Source: Acidobacteriota bacterium
Lineage (GTDB): Bacteria > Acidobacteriota > UBA6911
Assembly (NCBI GenBank): GCA_963664705.1
Contig: OY761556.1
Span: forward strand, 3,744,001-3,808,000
Reading direction: 5' to 3'
DNA length: 64,000 nucleotides
Shown: positions 41,104 to 61,425 of the stretch, piece after piece
Position numbering within the stretch: the first letter of the stretch is position 1
How the letters are laid out: the number at the start of each line of letters is the position of its first letter
The notes under the pieces: model-generated
What the model saw: the letters and a program-made list of their open reading frames with translations, nothing else
Databases searched by the model: none
What the model was told of the DNA's origin: nothing
Position numbers and translations under genes: made by a program

Positions 41104-42477
41104 ATGTATTCAAAACGGATTGCATGCATCGGCGCCGGATATGTCGGAGGCCCCACCATGGCAGTCATCGCCATGAAGTGCCCTCAATATAAGGTCCATG
41201 TTGTTGACGTCAGCGCATCGCGCATAAATGCCTGGCAAACAGATAGTCTGCCGATCTATGAACCGGGGCTCCTGGATGTTGTTCAGGCCGCCCGCGGAAG
41301 GAATTTGTTTTTCTCCACCGATATCAATGCCGCAATTCGAGAATCAGAGATTATTTTTGTTTCCGTCAATACTCCCACCAAAACCTTCGGTGAGGGAGCC
41401 GGCAGGGCAGCCGATCTGCAGTACTGGGAAAAGGTTGCACGCGAGATTCTTCGCGAATCCAAGTCCCCCAAGATTGTCATTGAAAAAAGCACATTGCCCG
41501 TAAAAACGGCTCAAACAATGGAAAACATCCTGAACGGCAGCGGCAGGAAGGCTCAGTTTGAAGTGATTTCCAATCCGGAGTTTCTGGCTGAAGGGACCGC
41601 CGTTAAAGACCTGTTGGAACCTGATCGCGTGCTGATTGGATCGCGTGAAACTCCGTCCGGCCTCGAAGCACGACAGGAGGTCGTGGACATTTACGCAAAC
41701 TGGGTGCCACGAGAGCGGATTCTGACGAGCAATGTCTGGAGCGCCGAATTATCCAAGCTTGTTGCCAACGCATTCCTGGCGCAGAGAATATCTTCCATCA
41801 ACAGCATCTCCGCTCTGTGCGAAAAAACCGATGCGAGCGTGCAGGAAGTGGCGCGGGCAATCGGCATGGATTCACGGATCGGCAACAAGTTTCTTAACGC
41901 CAGCGTCGGGTTCGGGGGATCGTGCTTTAAAAAAGACATCCTGAACCTGGTCTATATTTGCGAATCCTACGGGCTGCACGATGTTGCGCAGTATTGGGAA
42001 TCGGTCCTCGATATCAATGAATTCCAGGAAGCCAGATTTGTGCGGACGATGATCCGGGAAATGTTCAATACCATTGTAGGGAAAAGAATCGCGCTGTTCG
42101 GGTTTGCATTCAAAGCAGATACCAGTGATACGCGGGAGTCGCCGGCTATCTACATTACCAGGAAACTGCTGGAAGAGCGGGCGCAGGTTGCGATCACGGA
42201 TCCACAGGCGCTTGAAAATGCGCGGATCGATCTTGCACAATTTTCCGAAAACCTCGAATATATCGAAGATCCGTACGAGGCGGCAAGGGGATCACACGCC
42301 ATCGCAGTGATGACTGAATGGGGACTCTACAAATCGCTCGATTGGGAAAAGATCTATAAGTCGATGGAGAAGCCCGCGTTTCTGTTTGATGGAAGGAATC
42401 TGTTGGACCACGAGGCGCTATTTAAGCTGGGATTTAATGTTTACCCTTTGGGGAGGCCAGCGCTGAAACATTTTTAG
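41104..42477 (+). CDS. ugd: UDP-glucose 6-dehydrogenase
   Basis: IACIGAGYVGGPT, SNPEFLAEG, catalytic GFGGSCFKKD; the upstream ORF extension runs through a repeat. Confidence 0.93.
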   Translation: MYSKRIACIGAGYVGGPTMAVIAMKCPQYKVHVVDVSASRINAWQTDSLPIYEPGLLDVVQAARGRNLFFSTDINAAIRESEIIFVSVNTPTKTFGEGAGRAADLQYWEKVAREILRESKSPKIVIEKSTLPVKTAQTMENILNGSGRKAQFEVISNPEFLAEGTAVKDLLEPDRVLIGSRETPSGLEARQEVVDIYANWVPRERILTSNVWSAELSKLVANAFLAQRISSINSISALCEKTDASVQEVARAIGMDSRIGNKFLNASVGFGGSCFKKDILNLVYICESYGLHDVAQYWESVLDINEFQEARFVRTMIREMFNTIVGKRIALFGFAFKADTSDTRESPAIYITRKLLEERAQVAITDPQALENARIDLAQFSENLEYIEDPYEAARGSHAIAVMTEWGLYKSLDWEKIYKSMEKPAFLFDGRNLLDHEALFKLGFNVYPLGRPALKHF

Positions 42478-42505
42478 CCGCTGACATACGCTGACGGACG
42501 CTGAT
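42478..42505 (+). repeat. Single arm of the (A)CGC[GT]GA periodic repeat family
   Basis: ccgctgacat acgctgacgg acgctgat fills the whole ugd-galE spacer. Confidence 0.65.
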
Positions 42506-43537
42506 ATGAAAATACTGGTTACAGGGGGAACGGGGTATATAGGATCTCATACCGCAGTTGAACTGATTCAAAGCGGCTATGAACCGGTCATTGTCGATAA
42601 TCTTTCGAATTCGCGGATCGAAGTGCTCGATGGGATCCAGGAGATCACACGGGTTCGTCCGGGGTTTGAGAAACTCGATCTATGCGAACTGGAGCGGCTT
42701 AGGGATTTTTGTCGCAGGAACGAAGGCCTAAAGGCAATCGTCCACTTCGCGGCATACAAGGCAGTCGGCGAATCAACGGAAAAGCCGATTGAGTACTATG
42801 AAAACAACCTCGTTTCGCTGCTGAATATTCTCCGAACGATGAAGGAATTTGGCATCCCGTTCCTGGTATTCTCTTCTTCCTGCACTGTATATGGACAGCC
42901 GGATGAGCTTCCGGTGACAGAAGAATCGCCTATAAAGCCGGCTGCCTCTCCTTATGGAAATACCAAGCAAATTTCTGAAGAAATAATTCGGGACACGATA
43001 GCCGCTTCAAGCGGATTGAAAGCCATTTCCCTTCGCTACTTCAACCCGATCGGGGCGCATCCGTCGGCATTGATTGGCGAGCTTCCGTCAGGAACACCGC
43101 TAAACCTTGTTCCCTACATCACCCAGACGGCCGCAGGAGTCAGGGATCATTTGCGGGTTTTTGGCAATGATTATGACACGCCGGATGGCTCCGGCATCCG
43201 CGACTATATCAATGTCGTCGACCTGGCCAAGGCGCATGTAAAAGCAATTGAGCGGTTGATTGGGACCCGGGCAAAGCAAGCTTACGAGGTTTTCAACCTG
43301 GGGACCGGCAAGGGACTGTCTGTTCTGGAGATCATTCAGAGCTTCGAAAAATCTACCGGGCAGAAACTCAATTACAAGATCTATCCTCGAAGACCCGGAG
43401 ATATTGCCTGCGTCTACGCGGATACTTCTCTGGCGAATCGGGAACTGGGGTGGAAAACAGAAACAACTCTGGAGGATACTCTTCGTTCCGCCTGGAATTG
43501 GGAAAACCACATAAGAGGGACCGCGGAGGGACGCTGA
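42506..43537 (+). CDS. galE: UDP-glucose 4-epimerase
   Basis: GGTGYIGSH, HFAAYKAVGES, YGNTK, LRYFNPIGAH. Confidence 0.96.
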   Translation: MKILVTGGTGYIGSHTAVELIQSGYEPVIVDNLSNSRIEVLDGIQEITRVRPGFEKLDLCELERLRDFCRRNEGLKAIVHFAAYKAVGESTEKPIEYYENNLVSLLNILRTMKEFGIPFLVFSSSCTVYGQPDELPVTEESPIKPAASPYGNTKQISEEIIRDTIAASSGLKAISLRYFNPIGAHPSALIGELPSGTPLNLVPYITQTAAGVRDHLRVFGNDYDTPDGSGIRDYINVVDLAKAHVKAIERLIGTRAKQAYEVFNLGTGKGLSVLEIIQSFEKSTGQKLNYKIYPRRPGDIACVYADTSLANRELGWKTETTLEDTLRSAWNWENHIRGTAEGR

Positions 43538-43599
43538 TTACGCGGAGGACGCGGATAAATATCCGCGTCCTCCAGCGTAGTCGGCGTGTGTCCGCGGTT
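43518..43599. repeat. 9-bp-periodic inverted-repeat hairpin (GxxExxY-arm family)
   Basis: ggaccgcggagggacgctgattacgcggaggacgcggat...atccgcgtcctccagcgtagtcggcgtgtgtccgcggtt; contains the galE stop and overlaps the stop of the convergent dehydrogenase. Confidence 0.85.
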
Positions 43600-44884: not shown

Positions 44885-45135
44885 GTAAGAGTCCTTTCCG
44901 GGGAGACTAAGCGAACGACCGCCATAGTCTAGCACAGACCATATCGGCAGTTTGGCCACAGATTCCACTGATTGCAGAGATAAAAAAAGCGGCCGGTGCT
45001 CTTGAGAATGCCAATTTGCAGTTGAAATACGGCTGCCTGTCAGAATAGGCTTGCCCATTCAGTCAAACTGCGGCTCAATTTGGGCCATTTTGCGAAGGCT
45101 TATGTTTTTGCGGGCGTAGACCGAAGAGAGAAGAC

Positions 45136-46206: not shown

Positions 46207-46227
46207 CCACGCCAACGGGGCACAGCG

Positions 46228-46662
46228 CTAATTTTCGGAAGCTTCTTTGATGCAGTCCAGGACATCCGCCGTGGCCAGACGCCAGCTAAAATCGCTTTCA
46301 CACTGATCCAGGAGAGCTGAAAGCATCTTCAGGCCACGTCGCAATGCATCGCGGAAACCTGCGCTGGCAGCACGTTCGCCGGCATTCATCAGCATCATCC
46401 GCAAACCCTGGGCAATTTCGTACAGGGCGCTGAAGCCCCAGCTGTCCGCTTCGACGCACAGCTGTTCCAGCTTGTCAGAAGCTCGCTGCCATTGTTCGGC
46501 CGCCGAGTCCCGCTGCACTTCCTCGAGCAATTCGCGGCAAAAATCCACAAACTGATATAGGGAACGAAGCTTAAGCTGCAGCTCCAGGGTAAGAACCGAG
46601 AGGAACTCTCGCCTCCCCTTCGTTATTTCCGTGAGAAAATCAGGAATGACCGGTACCTGCAT
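46228..46662 (-). CDS. Small helical protein, Hpt-like but lacking His
   Basis: LEQLCVEADSWGFSALYEIAQGL aligns by eye with the Hpt pattern AHxLKGSAGxxGFxxLxxxAxxL; strong upstream promoter. Confidence 0.6.
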   Translation of the reverse strand: MQVPVIPDFLTEITKGRREFLSVLTLELQLKLRSLYQFVDFCRELLEEVQRDSAAEQWQRASDKLEQLCVEADSWGFSALYEIAQGLRMMLMNAGERAASAGFRDALRRGLKMLSALLDQCESDFSWRLATADVLDCIKEASEN

Positions 46663-46688
46663 AGGCCAAGGATCCGGGGTAATGGTTT

Positions 46689-46765
46689 AAGGCAAATATT
46701 GTGGCAACGGACAGTCCGTACGCCATATATTGTGGATTATAAATAAAATATATGGAAAAAGTCAA
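46689..46765 (-). promoter_or_regulatory. Sigma70 promoter with tandem NrdR-box-like operators
   Basis: Minus strand TTGACT(46765-46760)-N18-TATAAT(46741-46736), then ccacaatatatggcgt (46735-46720) and ccacaatatttgcctt (46704-46689), 31 bp apart. Confidence 0.65.
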
Positions 46766-46778
46766 ATAGCGAATACCG

Positions 46779-47771
46779 CTAATGCTGCGCCAGGCCGCGA
46801 TAGGCAATAAAGCAGAGGATGCAGATCAGGATGAAAGCCGGAACCGCGTAGGGAACCATTTTTCGAAGCCACCCCGACGCGAAGCGCGAAACCATTTCTT
46901 CGCCCTTCAGCCCCATTGCCGCGCGCCTTACGTGCTTTCGCGTAATTACAAGCGAACGCTCAACGTAGGCCGCAAGCAAGGCTCGGTCGCAAATCAGGTT
47001 AATCAGGCGGGGGTAGCCTTTCGATTTACGCCAGACTGCCCTGAAAGCACTCTGCATAAAACGCAGCCTGGAAGTAGCCCCGGCAACCGCCAATCGATGC
47101 CGGATGTAGGACTCGGTATCGGCTTTGGTGAGAGCTTTGGTCTCGAATCTTACAGAAATCCGCTGATTCAGCTGGCGCAGTGAAGACATCTTCATCTTCT
47201 GATTGAGCTCCAGCTGGCCGACAAAGATGATTTGAAGAAGCTTTTTTTTCGCAGTTTCCAGGTTGGATAACAGCCGCAGCTGTTCCAATAGGGTCGTTGG
47301 AATATTTTGCGCTTCATCCACAATCAATACGGTAAATACATCCTCCTGCGCGCGAGCCGCAAGAAACAGGTTCAGCCTGTCGAGCAGCTGTTTCTTGGTC
47401 ATTCCCTTCATCCAGTCCGTGTCAAAGACGTTCAGGGATTCCTCAGGCTCAGCACTCGGCTCCATATTTCCTTCCGGTCGGACACCAAGGTCCTGCAGTA
47501 TAGACTTCAGGATATCGAGCTCGGAAAGCATCGGGTTTTGAATAAGAGCTGTGCGAATGTCTCTTTGCGCCAATCGTTCCAGAAGCGCCCAGCACAGGGT
47601 GGTCTTCCCTGTCCCCACATCCCCGACAACCAGGGCGAAGCCTTCACGGCGTTCTATGCCGTACAGGATCAGATCCAGCGCTTCTCTGCTTCTCTTGTTT
47701 AGATACAGGAAGGAAGGATCCGGAGTCAGGTTGAATGCGGCTTCTCGGAGACCAAAGAATTTTTCGTACAT
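46779..47771 (-). CDS. ExeA/GspA-like AAA ATPase (PEP-CTERM system ATPase, TIGR03015-like)
   Basis: MYEKFFGLREAAFNLTPDP, GDVGTGKT, IVDEAQ, GYPRLINLICDRALL, C-terminal TM. Confidence 0.88.
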   Translation of the reverse strand: MYEKFFGLREAAFNLTPDPSFLYLNKRSREALDLILYGIERREGFALVVGDVGTGKTTLCWALLERLAQRDIRTALIQNPMLSELDILKSILQDLGVRPEGNMEPSAEPEESLNVFDTDWMKGMTKKQLLDRLNLFLAARAQEDVFTVLIVDEAQNIPTTLLEQLRLLSNLETAKKKLLQIIFVGQLELNQKMKMSSLRQLNQRISVRFETKALTKADTESYIRHRLAVAGATSRLRFMQSAFRAVWRKSKGYPRLINLICDRALLAAYVERSLVITRKHVRRAAMGLKGEEMVSRFASGWLRKMVPYAVPAFILICILCFIAYRGLAQH

Positions 47772-47866
47772 AGGGCTTTCTTATCGGCAACGAGAGGCAA
47801 AAACAGAAGGGTTTGCCTCAAAAAGCGCAAAGGATTCAGTGAATCTGCGCCGTTCAGATCCCGGAG

Positions 47867-49735
47867 TTATTGAGATACTGTTTTGCTGTGCCAGAGGCGG
47901 AACATCAGCACGTTCCAAAGCTGCGTTGAACGATCGCGATATCCGGCCTGGTGCTGATCCCAGATCTGGCGCACAAAGGCCGTCGATAGAAATGGATCTT
48001 CCCGCTCAACAATGAACGCGCGCGCATATTCGCGAATTCCATTGCGGAACCATTCAGCCAGCGGAATGCCGAAGCCCATCTTCGTGCGATAAATCGTTTC
48101 ACTCGGAAGGTACGGCTCCATTGCCTTTTTGAAAAGATACTTGCCGGTATTGCCCCGAAGCTTCAGCGACGACGGCATACGAGCCAGCAGTTCCATGACC
48201 TTGTGATCCAACAGTGGACAGCGCACTTCCAGCGATACGGCCATGCTGGCCCGATCCACCTTCGTCAGGATGTCATCCGTCAGGTAGGTTTTGATATCGA
48301 GATACTGAATGCGGGATACAGGGTCATCTGTCCCGGCCCGAGCGCAATAGTCCCGGAAGAGATCCAGCGTGGAATAGCCTTTGAGCGCGGCCTTTACATC
48401 GGCCGAAAGAACCCTGGGTTTATCATCTCGGCGGAACATCGACATGGTTTCAAAGTATCCCTGAACCGAATCATACGAGAGACTCTGAAAAGTCGACCTT
48501 GCCCGCAAAAACCGCGGAGCCCAATCCATTTTGGGGTAAATACGGGCCAAGGGAGTAAAGAATATCCTACGAAAAGATGCCGGCAGATAGTTTCTGATGC
48601 TGTTTTCGACTGCATCAAAGGCATAACGACGGTACCCCGCAAAATTTTCATCGCCGCCATCTCCGCTAAGTGCAACGGTGACACGATCGCGCGCAGCTTT
48701 GCTTACATAATAGGTCGGCAGTGCGGACGAATCGGAAAAGGGTTCGTCGTAATGCCAGGCAAGCTTCTCAATTGTGGGAATGGTTTCCGCCGTGACATTG
48801 CGTTTGTAGTGGTCCGTCTTCAGAAAATCGGCAACCTGTTGCGCATATCCGGATTCGTCGAACGCATCTTCATCAAAGCCGATGGTTGCGGTACGAACCG
48901 GCTGACTCAGGATCCGGCTCATCATTGCAACCACAGCAGAAGAATCGAGCCCCCCGGAAAGAAACGCTCCCAGCGGGACCTCGCTCATGAGGCGGACGCG
49001 TATCGCTTCCTCGAATTGTTCAACGAATTGGGAAATCCACTGCGATTCGGTCAGTGAAGGCTCCGCCTGAAATTTGAAATCCCAGTAGGAAATTTCCCGG
49101 ACACTCTGCCCGGTGACCTTCAGAAAATGCCCCGGCATGATTTTGCGGATATGTTTATAGACTGATTTGGGTGCAGGGATATACCCGAGGGAGACATAGT
49201 CGCTGACTGCCTGTTCATCAATGCTCAAATCCAGACCGCCATGCCGGAGAATTGATTTGAGCTCGGAAGCAAAGACCAGCTTCTGGTCCTTCAGATAGTA
49301 ATAAAGAGGTTTTTTGCCGACGCGATCCCTGGCCAGAATCAACGTTCGCTTCGGCTCATCCCAAAGCGCAAAGGCAAACATGCCCCGAAGCATTGAGACA
49401 AAGGTATCGGGGTGCTGCTCATACAGATGAACAATGGTCTCGGTGTCACTGCGGGTACGGAACGTATGGGAAGTAAGCCCCCGATTCAACTCTTCGAAGT
49501 TATATATCTCACCATTGAAGCTGATCCAGACAGTCCCGTCTTCATTGCAGAGAGGCTGCTGCCCGGAACTGAGATCGATAATGCTCAAACGTCTATGAGC
49601 GAGAGCAATACCCTTCCCGGTGTGAACGCCGGACTCGTCTGGGCCACGATGCTTCTGCTCATCAGACATGAGCTGGGCAAGCTGCGGGTCCACCGGTCTG
49701 TCATCAAAATATAGAAATCCACAAATTCCGCACAT
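47867..49735 (-). CDS. asnB: Glutamine-hydrolysing asparagine-synthase-family amidotransferase (TIGR03108-like)
   Basis: MCGICG start, HRGPD, NGEIYN, FLSGGLDSS, KVDRASMAVSLEVR. Confidence 0.92.
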   Translation of the reverse strand: MCGICGFLYFDDRPVDPQLAQLMSDEQKHRGPDESGVHTGKGIALAHRRLSIIDLSSGQQPLCNEDGTVWISFNGEIYNFEELNRGLTSHTFRTRSDTETIVHLYEQHPDTFVSMLRGMFAFALWDEPKRTLILARDRVGKKPLYYYLKDQKLVFASELKSILRHGGLDLSIDEQAVSDYVSLGYIPAPKSVYKHIRKIMPGHFLKVTGQSVREISYWDFKFQAEPSLTESQWISQFVEQFEEAIRVRLMSEVPLGAFLSGGLDSSAVVAMMSRILSQPVRTATIGFDEDAFDESGYAQQVADFLKTDHYKRNVTAETIPTIEKLAWHYDEPFSDSSALPTYYVSKAARDRVTVALSGDGGDENFAGYRRYAFDAVENSIRNYLPASFRRIFFTPLARIYPKMDWAPRFLRARSTFQSLSYDSVQGYFETMSMFRRDDKPRVLSADVKAALKGYSTLDLFRDYCARAGTDDPVSRIQYLDIKTYLTDDILTKVDRASMAVSLEVRCPLLDHKVMELLARMPSSLKLRGNTGKYLFKKAMEPYLPSETIYRTKMGFGIPLAEWFRNGIREYARAFIVEREDPFLSTAFVRQIWDQHQAGYRDRSTQLWNVLMFRLWHSKTVSQ

Positions 49736-49881
49736 ATATTTCCCCGCTATATTATCGGTCTGAAAGCATGCCATAGTTCCGGAAATTTAATGAGAATTTT
49801 GAACCGGGAGTTCCGTCAAAATTGCATGCGCAGCTTAAAGGACTCGAAGACTTTCAGTCTTTGGGTTATGATCGATAACAA

Positions 49882-51660
49882 ATGAGAAAACTTATAATTG
49901 CTTTCCTGTTGCTTTTGTGTAGTGCCTCCGTGTTTGCTCAAACAGCAGACAACGTGCTTGTGGTGATGAATGAGGCAAGCCCGGACTCCCTGGACATAGG
50001 AATGTACTATGCCCAGAAACGCGGCATTCCCAAATCCAATCTGCTGCGGGTGAAAACCACGCTCGAAGAAGTAATCTCGCGTGAGGACTATGATCGGCAG
50101 ATCCATTCGCCCGTTGCGACATGGCTAATGCGGAATTCTGCCCAGGATCGAATTCTCTACATAGTTTTGACCAAGGGGATTCCTATCCGCATCAACGGAA
50201 CCACGGGTCAGGAGGGGAACACGGCCAGCGCGGACTCCGAACTGGCGCTCCTGTACCGGAGGATGGTCGGCCAGGCCACGCCCATCAACGGAAGGATCAG
50301 CAATCCCTATTTCCTGGGCGAAACGCCTGTCGCACAGGCAAAGCAATTCAGTCATACCGAACAGGATATCTATCTTGTCAGCCGTCTTGACGGATACAAC
50401 ATGGCCGAGATTCGCGGGCTGATCGATCGCGGAGCCGCCCCGTCAAAAGAAGGGAAGATTCTCCTGGATGCACAGGGCGCTCCTTCGAAGAAGGGGGATG
50501 CCTGGCTGGAGCAGACTGCCGACCTGCTCGGAAAAATGGGATTCGGCGCGCGGGTCACACTGGAAACCAGCCCGAAAGTGCTGATGGATACCAAGGATGT
50601 GCTTGGATACTACTCCTGGGGATCCAATGATCCGGCGATCCGGATCCGGCACTTCGGATTCGGATTTGTTCCCGGCGCTCTGGCCGGCATGTTCGTCAGT
50701 TCAGATGCCCGGACATTCAGGGAATCCTCCGATTGGAAAATCGAGGATTCCGGCTTTCCCCAATCGCTTGCGGCAGATTTCATCCGGGATGGCATTACCG
50801 GAATAGCCGGGCATGTTTCCGAGCCATTTTTGGAAGCCACGATCCGTCCCAATATTCTCTTCCCCGCCTATCTTTCCGGGTTCAACCTGGTTGAATCCTA
50901 CTACCTGTCCATGCCCTACCTGAGTTGGCAGACCATTGTCATCGGGGATCCTCTTTGTGCCCCGTTTCGAAAAACATCTCTGACTCCAAAGGAGATCGAT
51001 AAGGGAATCGATCTCGAAACGGAGCTGCCGGTCGATTTCAGCAAGCGTCGGCTGCGCGGCATTTCCGTTGAAGCTTATAACAAAGCGGGAATCCATCCAG
51101 ACACCATCAAGGCGATTCTGCGCTCGGAAGTACGACTGGCCAAAGAAAATAAGGCCGGCGCTATTCAAGCCCTGGAGGAAGCTACCGCACGCGATGACAG
51201 AATCGCAACCTATCATCTACTGCTAGCGCAGCTTTACGAAACCATAGGGGAATACGACAAAGCGATTGAACGCTATCGCAAGCTTCAGGAGTTTGTGCCC
51301 GACAATGCGCTTGTATTGAATAACCTGGCTTATGCGCTGGCTGCGCGAAAAAATAACCCGCAGGAAGCGTTGCCCCTGGCGGAAAAAGCCTACGAACTGG
51401 CAAAAGGGAGCGCACCCGTTGCCGACACGCTTGGGTGGATCTATCACCTGGCCGGGCAGGACGACAAAGCGTTGAAAATTCTCGAAGGCGCCTCGCGCTC
51501 CGCGGGAAACAACGCGGATATCCATTTGCACTTTGCCATTGTCAGCGCTGCCACTGGAAATACCCTAGCGGCAGAAGTCGCCATGAAAAAAGCTCTGGAA
51601 ATCAATCCAAAGCTCGAACAATCCGATGAAGTAAAGCAGTTACGATCAAAACTCAAGTAG
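49882..51660 (+). CDS. TIGR03790-family protein with C-terminal TPRs
   Basis: Signal peptide; NVLVVMN, YYAQKRGIP, VSRLDG, YYSWGSND, GHVSEPFL, LSWQTIVIGDPL; PrsT-like tail. Confidence 0.85.
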   Translation: MRKLIIAFLLLLCSASVFAQTADNVLVVMNEASPDSLDIGMYYAQKRGIPKSNLLRVKTTLEEVISREDYDRQIHSPVATWLMRNSAQDRILYIVLTKGIPIRINGTTGQEGNTASADSELALLYRRMVGQATPINGRISNPYFLGETPVAQAKQFSHTEQDIYLVSRLDGYNMAEIRGLIDRGAAPSKEGKILLDAQGAPSKKGDAWLEQTADLLGKMGFGARVTLETSPKVLMDTKDVLGYYSWGSNDPAIRIRHFGFGFVPGALAGMFVSSDARTFRESSDWKIEDSGFPQSLAADFIRDGITGIAGHVSEPFLEATIRPNILFPAYLSGFNLVESYYLSMPYLSWQTIVIGDPLCAPFRKTSLTPKEIDKGIDLETELPVDFSKRRLRGISVEAYNKAGIHPDTIKAILRSEVRLAKENKAGAIQALEEATARDDRIATYHLLLAQLYETIGEYDKAIERYRKLQEFVPDNALVLNNLAYALAARKNNPQEALPLAEKAYELAKGSAPVADTLGWIYHLAGQDDKALKILEGASRSAGNNADIHLHFAIVSAATGNTLAAEVAMKKALEINPKLEQSDEVKQLRSKLK

Positions 51661-51663
51661 AGA

Positions 51664-51740
51664 GGACCGCGGAGTACGCGGAAGACGCTGAGTACACGGG
51701 AAAGGCTCAAAAGGCCGCGTATTCAGCGTACTCCGCGGTT
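51664..51740. repeat. 9-bp-periodic inverted-repeat hairpin (GxxExxY-arm family)
   Basis: ggaccgcggagtacgcggaagacgctgagtacacggg...ccgcgtattcagcgtactccgcggtt, 3 nt after a stop codon. Confidence 0.85.
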
Positions 51741-51792
51741 AAGACAGCTTCACGGCAAGCCTACCAATCAAAATTTCGTGTATACTAGGGGC

Positions 51793-53004
51793 ATGAAACG
51801 GAAAAGCCCTGTTCTGATTGTTGTTATCGTCATTATTGTCGTCGGAACTGCTGTAGGATGCTTCATCTTATCGAAGCACACCGACGCTCCATCGTATATA
51901 ACTGCCAAAGCCGTTCGGCATGATATTCGTGTGGTTGTGAACACGAACGGCATCATCGAGCCGGCAGAACGCAGCGATGTGTATGCCCCGGTTGACGGCT
52001 TCGTCGCTTCCATTCAGAAAAAGGAAGGGGCTGAAGTGGCGCAAGGTCAGTTGCTTTTCAAACTGAATGCAGAACAACTGAGAACAGCCCTTGCCGAAGC
52101 CACTGCAGGACTGCTTGCCGCCCGCCGGCAAGCCCGCGCCGTGGAGACAGGTCCGTCACGGGAAGAGCTCAACGAGGTGGATGCGTCAATCGCGGAAACC
52201 GGCTTGCAGCTGGAACAACTCGGTAAAGACATCGCCACAGAGGAAGCTCTGCTGATTAAACAGGCCACAACGCGTATGGCGGTGGATAATCTGCGCAAAC
52301 AACGGGACCTGCTCCAACGCCGCATCGATTCACTGAAACAAAAAAAACAAGACATGACCGCCCGCTACTCCGCGGAAGACAAGACACTGGAAAAGGAACG
52401 CATCAACGAACTTGCCCGGCAGGTGAACTTGCTGAACAGCCAATTGCTTGCCGAGTCTGTTGTCACGCCCAAATCGGGAATCATCTATTCCCTCCTTGTA
52501 AAACCGGGAGCTTTTGTGCCCAAAGGGCAGCTTATGGCACAGATGTACAAACCGGGAAAGGTTCTGCTGCGTGCCTATGTGGATGAACCGGATCTGGGCC
52601 GCGTACGGAAGGGGCAGCCGGTCCGCATCGAATGGGATGGCATGCCGAATGAACACTGGACCGGAGTCGTCGAAAAACCAGCGGAACAGGTTGTTGCGCT
52701 GAATAATCGCTCCGTCGGTGAGGTGATATGCTCCATCGACAGCGGCCCGGCAGGCTTGATTCCCAACCTCAACGTGCGGGTGGAAGTCACAACCGAGCAG
52801 AAGCCGAACGCACTGGTTGTGCCCCGCAATGCCATCTTCAATTCCGGCGGAAAGACATCCGTACTGGTACCCCAAGGGGAGCGAACTGTGGCAAAGCCTG
52901 TCTCGCTGGGCCTGCTGACGACCGAGGAAATTGAGATCCTGAGTGGAATAAGCGAAGGGGAAACGGTGATATTGAGCCCGGCAGACGTGCTCAACAAATC
53001 ATAA
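51793..53004 (+). CDS. MacA/HlyD-family periplasmic adaptor
   Basis: N-terminal TM, lipoyl half-motifs (APVDGFV; TPKSGII), coiled coil, VDEPDLGRV. Confidence 0.88.
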   Translation: MKRKSPVLIVVIVIIVVGTAVGCFILSKHTDAPSYITAKAVRHDIRVVVNTNGIIEPAERSDVYAPVDGFVASIQKKEGAEVAQGQLLFKLNAEQLRTALAEATAGLLAARRQARAVETGPSREELNEVDASIAETGLQLEQLGKDIATEEALLIKQATTRMAVDNLRKQRDLLQRRIDSLKQKKQDMTARYSAEDKTLEKERINELARQVNLLNSQLLAESVVTPKSGIIYSLLVKPGAFVPKGQLMAQMYKPGKVLLRAYVDEPDLGRVRKGQPVRIEWDGMPNEHWTGVVEKPAEQVVALNNRSVGEVICSIDSGPAGLIPNLNVRVEVTTEQKPNALVVPRNAIFNSGGKTSVLVPQGERTVAKPVSLGLLTTEEIEILSGISEGETVILSPADVLNKS

Positions 53005-53035
53005 AATCTGTCAGAAATTTCCAGAATTACGAGAT

Positions 53036-54247
53036 ATGAAATCGATATTTCCGCTGATTGAAATTTTCCAGACTGCGAACCAGGCGCTGCTGCGCAACTG
53101 GGGTCGCGCCGTATTGACCTCACTCAGCATGGTTATCGGAACCGCTTCGCTGGTACTTGTCATCGTTGCCGGGATCAGCGGGAGAGACTACACCCTTGAA
53201 CAGATTCGCGGCGTCGGCACTAATCTGATCGCTATCTCGAATGAATCCGTTGATTCGGCTATGCGCGCGCGGTCCCTTGCGGACCTCCTGAACATGAATG
53301 ACCTGAACGCAATCACCGCCGTGCCCGGGGTGAAGAACGCAGTCGCCGTCATGACGGGGCACCCCACCTACACCGAATCGGGCGTCGCCCGGCGCGTGTC
53401 GCTGATCGGCACGACGCCGGAATATCAGCAGGTACGGAACATCAAGATCGTCAACGGAACATTTATCGACGACAATGACGAGCGATCCCGCAACAAAGTC
53501 TGCCTGGTCACGGAACTCCTCGCAAAAAAGCTGGAAGCGGATCCCTTTCACAGGAAAAACGCTATCACGCTCTATGGCGTTCAGTTTACCGTGATCGGCG
53601 TTTTCAAGGAACGAGTCAACACATTCGGACAGACCGAAATCTCGGACTACAGCGCCATCATCCCGATCTCGGTCATGCGCTATTTCAAACCGGGAGAGCC
53701 GCTGGATCAAATCTACGTCTCTGCAGAAACGATGGAAGTAGTTCCGCAGGTGTCCGCCGAAATCAAAGATCTCCTCACCAGGAGGCACCGAAACCAATCG
53801 CTCTTCCGGCTGGATAACCTGGCCGAGATATTGACCGCTGCAAACAAAATCAGCCTGGGGTTGACGCTGGTGCTTCTCGTGATAGCTACCATTTCGCTGG
53901 TTGCCAGCGGCATCAGCATCATGAACATCATGCTGATCACCGTTACCGAACGCACCAAAGAGATCGGCCTGAAGAAATCAATTGGCGCAGAGCGAAAAGT
54001 CCTCCTGACCGAATTTCTTGTGGAAGCCTTGATGCTGAGCAGCGGCGGCGGGTTGGTCGGCGTGCTGCTTGGCGCGGCAGTGCCTTATTCGATCCGGTTT
54101 TTCACGGATGCGATACGGATTCAGATTCCGCCGATTGCGATTATTTTGGGATTTGGAGTAACGCTGCTGGTTGGATTGACGTTCGGGATGATTCCCGCTC
54201 TGAGAGCTTCGCGAATGAACCCTGTGGAGGCATTGAGGTACGAGTAG
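53036..54247 (+). CDS. MacB/FtsX-like ABC permease without ATPase domain
   Basis: RAVLTSLSMVIG, IMNIMLITVTERTKEIG, PALRASRMNPVEALRYE. Confidence 0.92.
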   Translation: MKSIFPLIEIFQTANQALLRNWGRAVLTSLSMVIGTASLVLVIVAGISGRDYTLEQIRGVGTNLIAISNESVDSAMRARSLADLLNMNDLNAITAVPGVKNAVAVMTGHPTYTESGVARRVSLIGTTPEYQQVRNIKIVNGTFIDDNDERSRNKVCLVTELLAKKLEADPFHRKNAITLYGVQFTVIGVFKERVNTFGQTEISDYSAIIPISVMRYFKPGEPLDQIYVSAETMEVVPQVSAEIKDLLTRRHRNQSLFRLDNLAEILTAANKISLGLTLVLLVIATISLVASGISIMNIMLITVTERTKEIGLKKSIGAERKVLLTEFLVEALMLSSGGGLVGVLLGAAVPYSIRFFTDAIRIQIPPIAIILGFGVTLLVGLTFGMIPALRASRMNPVEALRYE

Positions 54248-54313
54248 AACCGCTGGAGATGCGGAGTACGCTGCATTACAGCGTCTACCGCGTACTCCGC
54301 GTCTTCAGCGGTT
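54248..54313. repeat. 9-bp-periodic inverted-repeat hairpin (GxxExxY-arm family)
   Basis: aaccgctggagatgcggagtacgctg...ccgcgtactccgcgtcttcagcggtt; fills the spacer between two convergent stops. Confidence 0.85.
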
Positions 54314-55469
54314 AAAAAACGGATCGAATCCGCCGGAGCCCTTCCTCAATTACCGGAATTGATGTTGCATACGAAAGACGAAGGTAGCCTTCGCCGTATT
54401 GCCCGAAGCATGATCCCGGGAGCAGCGCAACTCCAGCCTTTTCGAGAATCAGATTCGCCAGGTCGCTGGATGTCATTCCAGTTCCCTTGATATTCGGAAA
54501 AACATAAAATGCGCCTTGCGGCCGCTGGCATGTCATCCCGGGTATCTGGTTCAATCCATCGACAATAATATTTCGGCGACGCTGGTATTCCTCTACCATC
54601 CCGTCCACCATTCCCTGCGGACCAATGATCGCTTCAATCCCGGCAAACTGCGTGAAATGAGCGGTGGACCCCAGCGAATGGGTGAGCAACAACCCCACCT
54701 TCTCCGCCAGCGGCTTTGGCATGATCCCGTAACCAAGACGCCATCCCGTCATGGAATAGGTTTTGGAAAAGCCATCCACAATAATCGTCCGATCCTTCAT
54801 TCCCGGGAGCGAAGCAATTGAGGAGACCTGCAATCCGTCGTAAGCAATCCGGGCGTAAATCTCATCCGACATAACCCAGCAGTCATATTTCTGGGCTTGT
54901 GCAGCAATATGCTTCAGATCTTCGTCCGGAATGACACCCCCGGTAGGATTGCTCGGCGAATTCAAAATGATCAGCTTTGTGCGCTTGCTGATGAGCTTGT
55001 CAAAGGCCGCCAGATCGAAGGAAAAGCTGTTCTCCTCAAGAAGCGGCACAGGAACAGGCACGCCTCCTGCGACACCGATCATGGCCTCGTACGTTGGAAA
55101 TCCCGGGTTCGGATAAATAACCTCGTCGCCCGGTTCCACCAAAGCGAGCGTCGGGAAGAACAGATTCGGCTTGCCTCCCGGACTGACCACCACTTCATCC
55201 GGGTGAATCTCAATACCTCGCCGGCGACCAATATCCTCGGCAATTACTTTGCGAAGGCCGGGAACTCCGGCCGGATCCGTATATCGTGTCTTCCCTTCAC
55301 TGATTGCTTTAATACCTGAAAGGCTGACATTCGCAAAGGTTTCGTAATCAGGCTGGCCGATTTCAAAATGGACGATGTCTCTTCCGGCCGCCTCCAGTTT
55401 TCCTGCTTTGGCTAGTACCTGGTAAGCACCCTCGGGCGCAAGATGGTTTGTGCGTTGGGCGTAAGACAT
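54312..55469 (-). CDS. Class I PLP-dependent (aspartate-type) aminotransferase
   Basis: NSPSNPTG, SDEIY, GFSKTYSMTGWRLGY, GYLRLSYA. Confidence 0.92.
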   Translation of the reverse strand: MSYAQRTNHLAPEGAYQVLAKAGKLEAAGRDIVHFEIGQPDYETFANVSLSGIKAISEGKTRYTDPAGVPGLRKVIAEDIGRRRGIEIHPDEVVVSPGGKPNLFFPTLALVEPGDEVIYPNPGFPTYEAMIGVAGGVPVPVPLLEENSFSFDLAAFDKLISKRTKLIILNSPSNPTGGVIPDEDLKHIAAQAQKYDCWVMSDEIYARIAYDGLQVSSIASLPGMKDRTIIVDGFSKTYSMTGWRLGYGIMPKPLAEKVGLLLTHSLGSTAHFTQFAGIEAIIGPQGMVDGMVEEYQRRRNIIVDGLNQIPGMTCQRPQGAFYVFPNIKGTGMTSSDLANLILEKAGVALLPGSCFGQYGEGYLRLSYATSIPVIEEGLRRIRSVF

Positions 55470-55481
55470 AGAACCTCATTG

Positions 55482-55517
55482 ACGAATTACGAGTTACGAA
55501 TTACGACTTGACGAGTT
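55482..55517. repeat. 7-bp tandem repeat (ACGA[AGC]TT) x5
   Basis: acgaatt acgagtt acgaatt acgactt g acgagtt between panB and the aminotransferase. Confidence 0.8.
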
Positions 55518-55530
55518 GGACAACACGCTC

Positions 55531-56397
55531 CTACTTCTTTCCTTTGAGGAGGTTTTCAAGGCTGTTGAATTCTTCGTCAGGCATCGTGAACCAGTTTTCG
55601 CGCGCTGGGAATTTAACGGCCTTAACCTCGTCGTGATACTCCTTCAGACCGTTCAGAATGACTTCGCCAGCGTTGGCAAACATTTTAGCCATCTTGGGCT
55701 TGAACTTTGGGAAGAGGCCAAACATATCGTGGTAGATCAGCAACTGTCCGTGCGCATGGGGACCGGATCCCAATCCCATGATGATGCAGTTTTCGGAACG
55801 TTCCGTGATCAGCTTGCAAAGACGATCGGGAACGAGCTCAAGCAGAACGGCAAAGGCACCGGCTTTTTCGAGCGCCTTGGTATCATCGGCAATTTTCTTG
55901 GCAAGCGCGGCGTTTTTGCCCTGTACCTTGAATCCGCCGAGGGCGGCAACGGATTGTGGAGTCAAGCCGAGATGTCCGATCGCGGGAATACCCGCATCCA
56001 CGATTGCTTTGATGCGGGGCGCCATGGCCTCGCCGCCTTCCAGTTTGATCGCATCGCACCCGGCTTCCGCCATGAATCGTCCGGCATTCAGTACGGCGAG
56101 TTCATTGCTGGGTTGGTACGACATGTAGGGCATATCGCCGACCAGAAAAACATTCGGCGCTCCCCTGCGAACGGCGGCTGCATGGCGAATCATGTCGTCC
56201 ATCTTGACCGGCAGGGTGGTGTCATAGCCCAACATTGTCATGCCAAGGCTGTCGCCTACGAGGATCATTTCGATGCCGGCCTGTTCCTGGAGGTAGGCGG
56301 TAGGAAAATCGTAGCAGGTCAACCAGGTGATCGGCTCACCCTTTTCGACTTTCTGGAACAGGTATGGCAAGGTAACTTTTTCACGTGCTTTGGTCAT
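55531..56397 (-). CDS. panB: 3-methyl-2-oxobutanoate hydroxymethyltransferase
   Basis: LTCYD, ILVGDSLGM, DMPYMSY, KLEGG, GHLGLTPQS; start after AGGAG. Confidence 0.95.
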   Translation of the reverse strand: MTKAREKVTLPYLFQKVEKGEPITWLTCYDFPTAYLQEQAGIEMILVGDSLGMTMLGYDTTLPVKMDDMIRHAAAVRRGAPNVFLVGDMPYMSYQPSNELAVLNAGRFMAEAGCDAIKLEGGEAMAPRIKAIVDAGIPAIGHLGLTPQSVAALGGFKVQGKNAALAKKIADDTKALEKAGAFAVLLELVPDRLCKLITERSENCIIMGLGSGPHAHGQLLIYHDMFGLFPKFKPKMAKMFANAGEVILNGLKEYHDEVKAVKFPARENWFTMPDEEFNSLENLLKGKK

Positions 56398-56513
56398 GAC
56401 TTCAATGGCTCCTTTAGTATTTTTGCAGCCGCGAGTACCAATACCCATCGCGAGCAGGGATGCGATTCTAACAGAAAACCCTCCATCCGTTAAAAGAATA
56501 AGTGCCGCCCTCT

Positions 56514-57022
56514 CCCGCGTTTTCAGCGTACTCCGCGTATTCAGCGGTCCCGTGAAATAAATCCCTCCTCAACGAAACATTGTCCATATGGAACTGAAGC
56601 ATTCCGAAACAACCGGCCACCTCATAAATCTTTTCTACAAGGTCTATGCAACTCTTGGATTTGGATTCCTTGAGCGCGTTTATTTGAATGCAATGGTGGT
56701 TGCCGCAAAGGATTTCGGGCTGAATATCCAAAAGGACTTCCCTATTCGAGTCAGTTTCGAAAATGTGATCATTGGGAGATATGTGGCTGACTTGGTTGTA
56801 AATGACGCAATAATAGCGGAACTAAAAACCGTCGGGACACTCATTCCGGAACACGAGGCTCAGCTGCTCAATTATCTCAAGGCGACTGAATATGAAGTTG
56901 GTTTCTTGTTCAACTTCGGCCCAAAACCGCAGTTCAAGCGCATGGTTTTGGAAAATTCAAGAAAGGGGAGTCTTTCATGGATTAGGACCGCGGAAGGACG
57001 CGGAGTACGCTGAATACGCGGG
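56514..57022 (+). mobile_element. Candidate element: GxxExxY gene bracketed by 37-38 bp inverted arms of 9-bp units
   Basis: Left arm 56514-56550 and right arm 56985-57022 are reverse complements at about 34/38 positions; mobility is inference. Confidence 0.5.
56588..57013 (+). CDS. GxxExxY protein (PD-(D/E)XK nuclease-like, TIGR04256-like)
   Basis: LGFGFLERVY, YVADLVV, IAELKT, HEAQLLNYLKAT, LFNFG. Confidence 0.93.
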   Translation: MELKHSETTGHLINLFYKVYATLGFGFLERVYLNAMVVAAKDFGLNIQKDFPIRVSFENVIIGRYVADLVVNDAIIAELKTVGTLIPEHEAQLLNYLKATEYEVGFLFNFGPKPQFKRMVLENSRKGSLSWIRTAEGRGVR

Positions 57023-57093
57023 TTGTTTAAAATGATATTGGGAGAGAAGAGCATGCAGGTATAATGGTAGGGTTTTGGACATTGAGGGGGAAA

Positions 57094-58443
57094 ATGATGT
57101 ACCTAGAAAGCACTAATCGGCAGTCTCCGAAAGTCAACCTGGCGGAAGCCCTGATCCAGGGACAAGCTCCCGATAAGGGTTTGTACCTGCCGATCTCTAT
57201 TCCCCGCTTCGCTTCCGGCGAATTAGATGCACTCAAAAGCAAATCCTATCCGGAAATCGCTTTTGCCGTCTTAAGCAAATTCACGCAGGATACGTTTACG
57301 CACTCGAGGCTTGAACAGATGTGCCGCAGTGCCTACGACTACGAAGTCCCATTGGAAAGTGTCGATAACAAGCGCTTTGTCATGCGCCTCGATCGCGGAC
57401 CAACGGCTTCGTTCAAGGATTTTGCCGGACGTATGATGGGCCAGATGTTCGGGGCCCTTCGGGAACAGGCAACCGACCGGCTCGTAATCCTTACCGCGAC
57501 CAGCGGCGACACTGGAAGCGCCGTGGCACACGCTTTCTATAGAATTCCCCGAGTGGAAGTCATGGTCCTGTTTCCGCCGGATGAAGTCAGCAACCGGCAG
57601 CGAAAGCAAATGACCACGCTTGGAGAAAACATCACGGCCGTCGGTGTTGCCGGCAAATTCGACGATTGCCAGGCACTGGTCAAACAGGCATTTGCGGATC
57701 CAAGCCTGCAGCACATGCACCTGACGTCAGCCAACTCCATCAACATTGGCCGACTGCTTCCACAGATTGTTTACTATGTATACGCCTATGTCCGTCTGGC
57801 CCAAGCCGGTGCACCGGTGATTTTCTCGATCCCTTCCGGCAATTTCGGCGACATGATGGGAGCACTTCTGGCGTCACGCATGGGGCTGCCGATCGAAAAA
57901 CTCGTCATCGCAACGAATGCCAACGACGAAGTGGAAAAGTTCATGGAATCCGGGCGCTACGAAAAGATCGTCCCGTCGCGCTCCTGCATTTCAAATGCGA
58001 TGAACGTCGGGCACCCGAGCAATTTCGCGCGCGTAATCGCGCTGTTCGGCGGCTGGATGGACGAAGCGGGAGGCGTTCGCGAGATGCCGGACATGGCCCT
58101 GATGGAGCAGGAACTGTGGGCCACTAGCGTCAGTGACGACGATACCCGCAAGACGATTCAGCGCGCCTGGCAACAGCACAAGCTGCTGCTCGAGCCGCAC
58201 GGAGCGGTTGGCTGGCTGGGACTGGAACGTTATCTCGACAAAAATCCGTCTTCTTCAATTGCCATCTCCGTAGAAACGGCGCACCCTGCGAAATTCCCGG
58301 AGGAGATCGAGCGATTACTTGGCTTTTCGCCGGAGGTTCCCGCGACGCTCGCAGAAGTAGAAAAGAAGCAGGAAAATTATCAGAACATGCCTAACGATTA
58401 TGCGGCGTTCCATCGGTTGCTGACCCAAACATATGGCGTGTAA
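57094..58443 (+). CDS. thrC: Threonine synthase
   Basis: GPTASFKDF, ATSGDTGSAV, SANSINIGRL, PSGNFG, TAHPAKF. Confidence 0.95.
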   Translation: MMYLESTNRQSPKVNLAEALIQGQAPDKGLYLPISIPRFASGELDALKSKSYPEIAFAVLSKFTQDTFTHSRLEQMCRSAYDYEVPLESVDNKRFVMRLDRGPTASFKDFAGRMMGQMFGALREQATDRLVILTATSGDTGSAVAHAFYRIPRVEVMVLFPPDEVSNRQRKQMTTLGENITAVGVAGKFDDCQALVKQAFADPSLQHMHLTSANSINIGRLLPQIVYYVYAYVRLAQAGAPVIFSIPSGNFGDMMGALLASRMGLPIEKLVIATNANDEVEKFMESGRYEKIVPSRSCISNAMNVGHPSNFARVIALFGGWMDEAGGVREMPDMALMEQELWATSVSDDDTRKTIQRAWQQHKLLLEPHGAVGWLGLERYLDKNPSSSIAISVETAHPAKFPEEIERLLGFSPEVPATLAEVEKKQENYQNMPNDYAAFHRLLTQTYGV

Positions 58444-58538
58444 ATTCCAATTGCAGATTTCCGATTCCATATGAAAAACCAGTAAGCGCTTTTCTCTGGA
58501 ATTTGAAATCTGAAATCTGAAATCTGCAATCTGCAATT
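58443..58538. repeat. 7-bp-periodic inverted repeat (TG[AC]AATC family)
   Basis: aattccaattgcagatttccgattcca ... tggaatttgaaatctgaaatctgaaatctgcaatctgcaatt. Confidence 0.8.
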
Positions 58539-58550
58539 CAGAGGCTGATC

Positions 58551-59783
58551 ATGAAATACGTGATTTTTCTTGGCGACGGAATGGCCGATTACCCCATCCC
58601 TGAACTGGATGGCAAAACCCCGCTGATGGTGGCGAAAAAGCCCGCCATGGACCGCATTGCGCGCGAAGGATGCACAGGCCTGTTCCGAACGATTGAACCG
58701 GACATGCAGACCGGATCCGCCATCGCCAACCTTTCCGTGCTCGGATACAACGCAACCGAGCTCTTTCATGGAACCGAGGGACGCGGTGTGCTTGAGGCCG
58801 CCAGCCTGGGAATTGAACTCGATCGGAATGACATGGCAATGCGCGTCAACCTGATCTGCATCGAAGACGGCAAAATTCGCAGCCACTCCGCGGGCCATAT
58901 CACGACCGAAGAGGCTCGTATTCTCATTAATGATGCCCAGCAGCATTTCAAAGAATGGAATCTCCGTGTGTATCCGGGTCTCAGCTATCGCCATCTGCTT
59001 GTGGTGCCGGGAGGTGAATTCATGCTCGAGTGCTTCCCTCCCCACGACAACGTCGGGGCCCCCTGGAAGGACCTCATGGTCAAGCCGATCACTGCCGCTG
59101 GTCGGGAGACGGCCGAACTGCTGAACCGCATGGTTGAAGAATCCCAGAAGTTTCTTGAAAAGCACCCGGTGAATCTGAAACGCAGGCAAGAGGGAAAACA
59201 GATGGCCAACTCTTTGTGGCCATGGGCACCCGGGAAAAAGCCCGTGATGCAGACCATCCCACAAAGATTCGGGGTTTCAGGAGCCGCCATCACCGCAGTG
59301 GATCTGATAAAAGGTCTGGCTATTTACGCGGGCATGAAGCCGATCAATGTTGAAGGCGCGACCGGACTTTACGATACAAATTACGAGGGAAAAGCCGACG
59401 CTGCGTTGAAAGCGCTGGAGGATGTCGATTTCGTATATATCCACGTGGAAGCGCCGGATGAAGCAGGGCACGAAAAGAATCTTCCGTTGAAGATACGCTG
59501 CATCGAAGATCTGGACCGTAGGCTCATCCAGCGCGTGCTGGAAGGAATCGAAAAGAAGGGGTGGGATGCTACAGTGGCTGTCTTGCCGGATCACCCGACG
59601 CCGATTGCCCATGGCAATCACACGCGTGAAGCAGTGCCGGTAGCCATCCGTTCGCCCAGGCTTCAGGCAGATGCGGTGTCATCTTACGATGAGGATAGCG
59701 TCAGGCAAGGCTCGCTGGGATTATTAACGGGCTCCCGGTTTATCGAGACTTTTTTCTTACACTCCAAGAATCAGCGATCCTAA
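58551..59783 (+). CDS. apgM: Cofactor-independent phosphoglycerate mutase, ApgM family (proposed homoserine kinase, TIGR02535-like)
   Basis: GDGMAD, GKTPL, GSAIANLS, GRGVLEAAS, APDEAGH, PDHPTP...HT. Confidence 0.88.
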   Translation: MKYVIFLGDGMADYPIPELDGKTPLMVAKKPAMDRIAREGCTGLFRTIEPDMQTGSAIANLSVLGYNATELFHGTEGRGVLEAASLGIELDRNDMAMRVNLICIEDGKIRSHSAGHITTEEARILINDAQQHFKEWNLRVYPGLSYRHLLVVPGGEFMLECFPPHDNVGAPWKDLMVKPITAAGRETAELLNRMVEESQKFLEKHPVNLKRRQEGKQMANSLWPWAPGKKPVMQTIPQRFGVSGAAITAVDLIKGLAIYAGMKPINVEGATGLYDTNYEGKADAALKALEDVDFVYIHVEAPDEAGHEKNLPLKIRCIEDLDRRLIQRVLEGIEKKGWDATVAVLPDHPTPIAHGNHTREAVPVAIRSPRLQADAVSSYDEDSVRQGSLGLLTGSRFIETFFLHSKNQRS

Positions 59784-61359: not shown

Positions 61360-61365
61360 GGCCTC

Positions 61366-61425
61366 TCCAGATTTCAGATTTCGGATTCCAGATTTCTTCG
61401 GAAATTGGAAATCCGAAATTATGAA
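61366..61425. repeat. 7-bp-periodic inverted repeat with C(TTCG)G loop
   Basis: tccagatttcagatttcggattccagatttc-ttcg-gaaattggaaatccgaaattatgaa; overlaps the stop at 61419-61421. Confidence 0.8.

Follow-up and report, generated by a model that had tools for sequence, protein, structure and literature searches.

A GxxExxY gene for a predicted PD-(D/E)XK nuclease between periodic inverted arms in an acidobacterial genome, with matching gene-less hairpins

Genes of the GxxExxY family are typically flanked by inverted arms that are built of short, phased units. The case analyzed here lies between panB and thrC in a 64,000-nucleotide stretch of an Acidobacteriota genome (the window, G000:C1:3744001-3808000; coordinates below are window positions unless marked G000:C1). 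A single-copy gene for a predicted PD-(D/E)XK nuclease is enclosed there by two such arms, and matching hairpins without a gene are found nearby. We lean towards the reading that the gene probably goes back to one old insertion that has been inherited in place, and that its product is likely a partner of the RAYT or Ssn kind which spreads the gene-less hairpins.

The cassette and its protein

The left arm (56514..56550, 37 nt) has its head-first strand on the minus strand, so that its head points toward the gene, and consists of four 9-nt units. The right arm (56985..57022, plus strand, 38 nt) contains four units with a spacing of 10, 9 and 9 nt. Aligned as inverted repeats, the two share 34 identities with 3 mismatches and 1 gap (34/38 columns), and each of the two is made of four CGC[GT]G[AG] units placed 9-10 nt apart. 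The enclosed GxxExxY / PDDEXK_3 gene (56588..57013, plus strand, 141 aa; GC content 45.5% vs 53.2% for the genome) has its TGA stop codon inside the right arm, and the final 9 residues of the protein are encoded by the arm. When the upstream and downstream flanks were scored against each other as inverted repeats, the pair reached an arm score of 54; the flanks of 1000 control ORFs from the same genome scored at most 61, with the 99th percentile at 26. The first-pass annotation had described the pairing of the arms at about 34/38 nt, their four units of about 9 bp, the enclosed stop codon and the site between divergent neighbours, and all of this was reproduced. It had also seen no clear target-site duplication. 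We found no common word of at least 2 nt abutting both ends of the cassette, and such a duplication is thus absent; an old insertion site could have lost it.

Upstream of the gene, a leader that is conserved in the clade (TGAAAT ... GAAACA ... start; 56552..56587, plus strand) is a putative leaderless promoter. A GAAAC-type box was found by eye 5' of the start in 16 of 21 relatives inspected, whatever their arm order, and a sigma-70 scan did not list the leader as a promoter. The neighbours are divergent, with panB on the minus strand (55531..56397, start set from orthologues) and thrC on the plus strand (57097..58443). Their promoter-like sites lie just outside the cassette, at 56465..56493 on the minus strand for panB (a consensus match only) and at 57038..57065 on the plus strand for thrC, with a TATAAT box conserved in the congeners G014, G002 and G018. 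The cassette is thus located between these two sites, about 20 and 15 nt outside the respective -35 boxes, and should disturb neither. A second, distant copy of panB (48% identity) is present at G000:C1 2225128-2225952. A search of positions 42000-58600 against Rfam gave no matches at E <= 0.1.

The protein matches TIGR04256 (E 8.5e-32, 110 bits vs a cut-off of 35) and PF13366 (E 2e-33, 115.6 bits vs a cut-off of 22), in both cases above the curated cut-off and over the whole model, and it carries the motif G26-F-L-E29-R-V-Y32. An AlphaFold (AF2) model built from a 15-sequence alignment has a pLDDT of 88, with residues 130-141 disordered, and adopts a restriction-nuclease-like fold. Foldseek placed Cas4 SSO0001 (PDB 4ic1) first with E 4e-4, followed by lambda-type exonucleases and Holliday-junction resolvases. 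With VIA, the best matches were restriction-like nucleases with middling Z-scores from 8.0 (BpuSI; rmsd 3.1, 96 aligned) to 7.5. Across both programs the best structural matches are Cas4, BpuSI, SwaI and lambda exonuclease (Z at most 8.0). The residues E29, D68, E78-x-K80 and Q92-x3-Y96 are intact, and E29, D68, E78 and K80 are conserved in 132, 131, 132 and 133 of 133 non-redundant homologues, respectively. With a restriction-endonuclease-like model and a conserved D and E-x-K, the protein is a predicted PD-(D/E)XK nuclease with an intact catalytic motif, which agrees with the family assignment made at first pass.

A relationship to Cas4/RecB-like enzymes is indicated by the match to SSO0001 (VIA Z 7.5) and by the D...E-x-K and Q-x3-Y motifs, which we take to be Cas4/RecB-like; the Pfam Cas_Cas4 model matches weakly (E 0.2). 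Cas4/RecB-type enzymes act on single-stranded DNA. In contrast to Cas4, the protein, with a core of about 120 residues, lacks the four Fe-S cysteines, and its neighbours are panB and thrC rather than cas genes. As it has no cysteine at all, an Fe-S cluster is not expected. The first-pass annotation had proposed a non-HUH protein, and indeed no Y1_Tnp (HUH) match was found at E up to 1, nor was there a match to GIY-YIG. Searches with the sequence against the PDB gave no matches, and the ESM Atlas, with PF13366 left out, yielded no usable match.

The family is large, with 4068 homologues in one search and the gene present in 148 of 401 genomes of the phylum. Named GxxExxY records come from Acidobacteria, Caldilineales, Ignavibacteria, Planctomycetes, Gemmatimonadota, Pseudoxanthomonas and Actinomycetes. 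In the accessible part of PMC3424549, PF13366 is listed with unknown function, and a published mention of GxxExxY places the gene next to a reverse transcriptase. Viral contigs contained 1 locus and plasmids 8 (of 72,556 records), all typed as non-mobilizable, so that there is no sign of phage or plasmid carriage in these collections.

Periodic arms and gene-less copies across loci and genomes

We collected 177 GxxExxY loci, removed 7 exact duplicates and kept 148 that had 200 nt on both sides and covered at least 80% of the model; some near-duplicates remain among them. The arm score exceeded the 99th percentile of the control in 116 of the 148, and a score of at least 30 was reached by 107, compared with 7 of 1000 controls. 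Among 148 possible partners, a gene's own downstream flank ranked first in 54 loci and in the top five in 88, and 11% of non-cognate flank pairs passed the threshold. Where the arms are clearly periodic, the period is 10 (50 loci), 9 (26), 8 (4) or 12 (1). Arm word profiles correlate with protein identity (Mantel rho 0.38, p 0.001, 133 non-redundant loci). Periodic inverted arms are therefore a family trait of GxxExxY loci, and both the enrichment of arms around these genes and their co-variation with the protein clade, which had been put forward as checks at first pass, are borne out.

The three GxxExxY genes of G000 each have a distinct unit, together with dispersed copies of it. The paralogous cassette at G000:C1:2163560-2163940 has internally deleted derivatives, consisting of arms and gene ends, at 21 other loci (e.g. 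5193428-5195103), some of them in tandem arrays of 3-7 copies with a period of 250-390 nt. The third gene (L001, G000:C1:4472200-4473170) is directly followed by two internally deleted copies of itself. A comparable layout is seen in another family: all five four-helix-bundle (TIGR02436) genes of the genome (L286-L290; G000:C1 3325358, 3103103, 1375899, 235720 and 361654) lie between inverted arrays of units of about 7 nt, with an own unit for each gene. Gene-less 7-mer arrays of the type of the fifth of these genes were noticed in the window at 58449-58538, in the gap between thrC and the following gene, and at 61364-61394. We also noted an 82-codon, Ssn-like GIY-YIG frame (L283, G000:C1:3307134-3307346) with a palindrome upstream, beside the apparent end of a stable RNA gene.

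The first-pass annotation had counted four gene-less recurrences of the cassette arms within 15 kb. There are four copies, all to the left of the gene; however, only three are complete hairpins, the fourth being a lone arm. The hairpin at 43518..43599 (DNA folding z -10.4) is located between convergent genes, where it contains the stop codon of a galE-like gene and abuts that of the opposite gene. The one at 51664..51740 (z -7.3) lies directly 3' of the stop codon of a TPR-like gene, and the one at 54248..54313 (z -7.6) between the stop codons of convergent permease and aminotransferase genes; both have their heads outward. The lone arm (42477..42505, plus strand), a 10-mer variant, fills the gap from a stop codon to the next start codon. 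Hairpins of this repeat class contain no gene remnants. Single arms fold weakly, with z-scores of -1.6 and -2.0.

All four copies start at a stop codon or a few bases from one. Genome-wide, this association is weak (5/43 loose heads vs a random rate of 1.4%, with many chance matches among them), and the repeat class of one paralogue gave 0/77. Four of 13 hand-curated gene-less elements were found within 15 kb of the gene (0.06 expected) and six within 110 kb, the latter all on one side (window 42477-54313; G000:C1:3694960 and 3706414). The repeats of a paralogue are also mildly enriched near the gene (4/31 vs 1.0 expected), and no clustering of repeats near the gene was seen in G014. The orthologous junctions of congeners carry differing repeat families (L081, L083, L087 and L090, at the 3' ends of ugd, the aminotransferase gene, thrC and the permease gene): G014 and G024 have related 10-mer hairpins, G014 and G002 have 6-mer arrays 3' of thrC, and G042 has other palindromes. 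Such differences at one and the same junction suggest repeated gain and replacement. A mosaic of the BIME type was noticed in G014 (L274, G014:C1:688066-689191), where five tandem 257-nt units each combine a hairpin of the 10-mer type with part of a different palindromic repeat.

Repeats and gene tend to occur together. At least five strict three-unit matches were found in 67 of 148 phylum genomes with a GxxExxY gene vs 9 of 253 without (401 genomes). In the genus (30 genomes), at least three matches to the CGC[CGT]GA pattern were found in 6/6 genomes with the gene of this clade vs 1/24 without; excluding the cassette's own arms leaves 5/6. Nominal p-values overstate the association, since the motifs used for counts and polarity were drawn from these very loci, the arms of the genes themselves are counted, and related genomes are not independent. 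The strict patterns replaced loose 14-nt patterns, which were dropped because many of their matches in G043 came from a different, longer repeat. That repeat, dispersed and about 170 nt long, has one arm-like word in G043 (L151, G043:C5) and abuts a 10-mer hairpin in G006 (L279, G006:C4). In G006, an assembly of 200 contigs that is 98% complete, 23 strict matches were counted, clear hairpins among them, and the gene was not detected there. G002, whose gene has a premature stop codon, contains 1 gene-less strict match, compared with about 34 in G014, whose gene is intact.

History of the site and arrangement of the arms

Among 12 congeners with a close panB orthologue, thrC lies directly beside panB in three (G014, G002 and G018). 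In G014 and G002 the junction contains the gene, with 72% and 70% identity and the same inward polarity as in G000. G018 has a junction of 170 nt which is empty, so that the empty site sought after the first pass does exist. G009 has another gene between panB and thrC, and the remaining congeners have other neighbours. A tree of 11 neighbouring genes from nine genomes sets G000, G014 and G002 apart from the others with 99% support, although it is unrooted. Between G014 and G002, dS is 0.36 for the gene, 0.21 for panB and 0.54 for thrC; relative to G000 the values are 1.6-2.0, 1.5-1.9 and 2.0-3.3, respectively, which is near saturation. The dN/dS of the gene is 0.10-0.19 and indicates purifying selection. 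As far as sequence divergence can tell, this pattern agrees with a single insertion that has since been inherited under purifying selection. However, with dS close to saturation, an unrooted species tree and 72% support for the gene-tree group uniting the three site-sharing genes, two insertions at one site or a loss in G018 may have occurred instead. The G002 orthologue (L054, G002:C78:8756-9160) has a premature TAA at codon 117; the cluster P0011, which is nearly identical to it, is intact.

No second copy or fragment of the panB-thrC gene was found elsewhere in G000. The first-pass annotation had named syntenic fixation as evidence against a mobile unit, and this is partly what we see: the gene occupies the junction in 3 of 4 genus genomes with adjacent panB and thrC (G000 included) and has diverged much like its neighbours, but the site is empty in G018, and most clade genes (8 of 11, from 51 genomes of the family) are away from panB-thrC. 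The gene thus moves over longer times, and the panB-thrC copy appears to be an old resident, not an active jumper. The junctions of the congeners are too diverged to place the exact ends of the insertion.

The arms have changed along with the lineages. The arms of G000, which score 54 against each other, score 14-28 against those of G014 or G002, and they are of the 9-mer type, in contrast to the 10-mer arms of these two genomes. The five closest proteins, compared at the protein level rather than as DNA, have tails like the arm-encoded tail of G000 and form with it a 97% clade that is nested among proteins with 10-mer-type tails. Judging from these sequences, both arms change in concert between lineages.

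With L denoting the head-first strand and R its complement, the opposite polarity of cassette (heads inward) and gene-less hairpins (heads outward) seen at first pass is real. The 148 loci comprise 45 L-gene-R, 12 LR-gene-LR and 8 L-gene-LR arrangements and many mixtures; the inward form R-gene-L, with only R upstream and only L downstream, was found in 8, four of which are the panB-thrC lineage. Close relatives are L-gene-R (G043), LR-gene-R (G007) or L-gene-LR (G023), and LR-gene-LR is common in the sister clade. Inward polarity thus marks no special class, as arm arrangement varies among close relatives. We infer that R-gene-L cannot arise from L-gene-R by simple inversion. Most likely it is the inner half of a hairpin-gene-hairpin unit that has lost its outer arms, and by eye no remnant of outer arms was seen at the site. 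A circle of gene plus hairpin, opened in the loop and then integrated, would give the same picture.

Known systems, mechanism and rival explanations

In layout, the cassette resembles both REPIN/RAYT and Ssn/SRM systems. As in the latter, a small single-domain nuclease gene lies between its own repeats and gene-less copies occur elsewhere, repeat-rich genomes mostly have the gene, and the repeat varies with the enzyme (available portion of PMC11893778). In the same portion, repeats on both sides are given for 42% of Ssn homologues; cognate repeats on both sides were found at 109 of our 148 loci. Ssn proteins are, however, GIY-YIG enzymes (cd10448) with NTS/SRM repeats and a demonstrated activity (PMC11893778, as above), in contrast to a nuclease that is predicted from a PD-(D/E)XK fold, and the three GIY-YIG matches of G000 lie elsewhere. 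Unlike Ssn repeats, GxxExxY arms are non-palindromic arrays of 9-10 nt units that pair only with the second arm. RAYT systems, according to the accessible sections of PMC3116915, share the single-copy, largely vertical enzyme gene, several enzyme-repeat pairs per genome, and intergenic gene-less inverted doublets in hairpin form besides singlets and clusters. Likewise, the cognate repeats on either side of the predicted enzyme gene studied here recur as hairpin doublets without a gene, as in a REPtron, and the gene is single-copy and mostly vertical, as far as saturated dS and an unrooted tree allow. The difference is that RAYT (TnpA-REP) is an HUH/Y1 tyrosine transposase with palindromic REP units (PMC3116915, same sections), compared with a protein without an HUH match and phased direct repeats; the only Y1_Tnp gene of G000 is located elsewhere and has other flanks. 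The cassette therefore belongs to neither system, having no HUH domain, no GIY-YIG domain and periodic units that are not palindromic.

Paired tandem hepta- and octanucleotide repeats of Geobacter metallireducens are similar in that four or five short units stand on opposite strands at variable distance; they differ in their 7-8 nt units and in being predicted regulator binding sites, and the part of PMC2700814 at hand mentions no link to GxxExxY. The 7-mer TAACTGA repeats are covered without a named nuclease partner in the available text of PMC4679880. Our literature search, carried out largely without subscription papers and bioRxiv supplements, found no description of periodic arms at GxxExxY genes.

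In the mechanism we propose, the protein would recognize phased CGC[GT]GA units, with single-stranded DNA as the most likely form of the target, and would nick near them. Host repair, with another copy as template, would then introduce hairpins or lone arms at gene junctions, and templated repair would also keep the two arms of the nuclease's own gene alike. The gene itself would move rarely, leaving the nuclease mostly sedentary. It is unlikely, by comparison, that another factor (host repair or recombination, or an enzyme in trans) spreads the arms, with the GxxExxY gene riding between them as cargo or binder. This explanation gains from the four-helix-bundle genes, which show the same architecture with 7-nt units in 5/5 cases in G000: since these proteins are not known to be nucleases, periodic arms may be able to do without one encoded in the cassette. 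Repeat-rich genomes without a detected gene (G006; 9/253 in the phylum) and the exchange of repeat families at the junctions of congeners point the same way. However, the sequence of the arms follows the GxxExxY clade and the catalytic residues show almost no variation, and the one Y1 transposase gene and the Ssn-sized GIY-YIG gene of G000 are flanked by other palindromes without periodicity.

The first-pass annotation had thought of an autonomous, repeat-mobilizing member, and the arm-gene-arm unit could be imagined to move as a whole in the manner of an insertion sequence, the hairpins being its emptied or internally deleted shells. The derivatives of the paralogous cassette at 21 other loci, the clade genes at unrelated junctions and the empty G018 junction would suit this idea. 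We nevertheless regard it as rather improbable and the notion of a currently mobile element as unsupported for this copy, which is single, lacks a target duplication and has diverged like its neighbours at the shared site. Near-identical copies or deleted derivatives, as expected for an insertion sequence or MITE donor, exist for the paralogue, but not for this gene; no consistent target-site duplication was found at 41 paralogue-type elements either. The arm order around close relatives is not fixed, unlike that of transposon ends, and the hairpins are devoid of gene remnants. Still less probable in our view is a system at the RNA level, with hairpins that shape the ends of transcripts where genes meet and a protein that binds the repeated units in mRNA or cleaves them. 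It would account for the location of the 4/4 nearby copies at or near stop codons, and the complete arm-gene-arm unit does fold as RNA with its arms paired (z = -5.1). Yet the left arm lies upstream of the putative leaderless start and would thus be missing from the transcript of the gene. A terminator-like T-run was not found at the cassette, and the closest structural matches are DNA nucleases. A role in RNA also leaves the origin of the copies unexplained.

Returning to the nuclease as a largely sedentary partner of the hairpins, a bolder version is possible, although we hold it as tentative. GxxExxY proteins may be sequence-specific nucleases, forming a family that is very large and undescribed; they would read phased arrays of 9-10 nt units and copy them genome-wide without a recognized transposase. 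R-gene-L would then be an integrated gene-plus-hairpin circle opened in the loop, both arms would be rewritten when specificity shifts, and the four-helix-bundle genes with their 7-mers would be a second branch.

The arms represent a predicted substrate for each GxxExxY protein, and its function is thus directly testable. The panB-thrC site provides a natural experiment in this respect, with orthologues at one site that have 9-mer arms in G000 and 10-mer arms in G014. If confirmed, GxxExxY would be the third nuclease fold paired with dispersed bacterial repeats, after the HUH RAYT and the GIY-YIG Ssn proteins; this would account for intergenic hairpins of a widespread class and make many small nucleases of differing specificity available.
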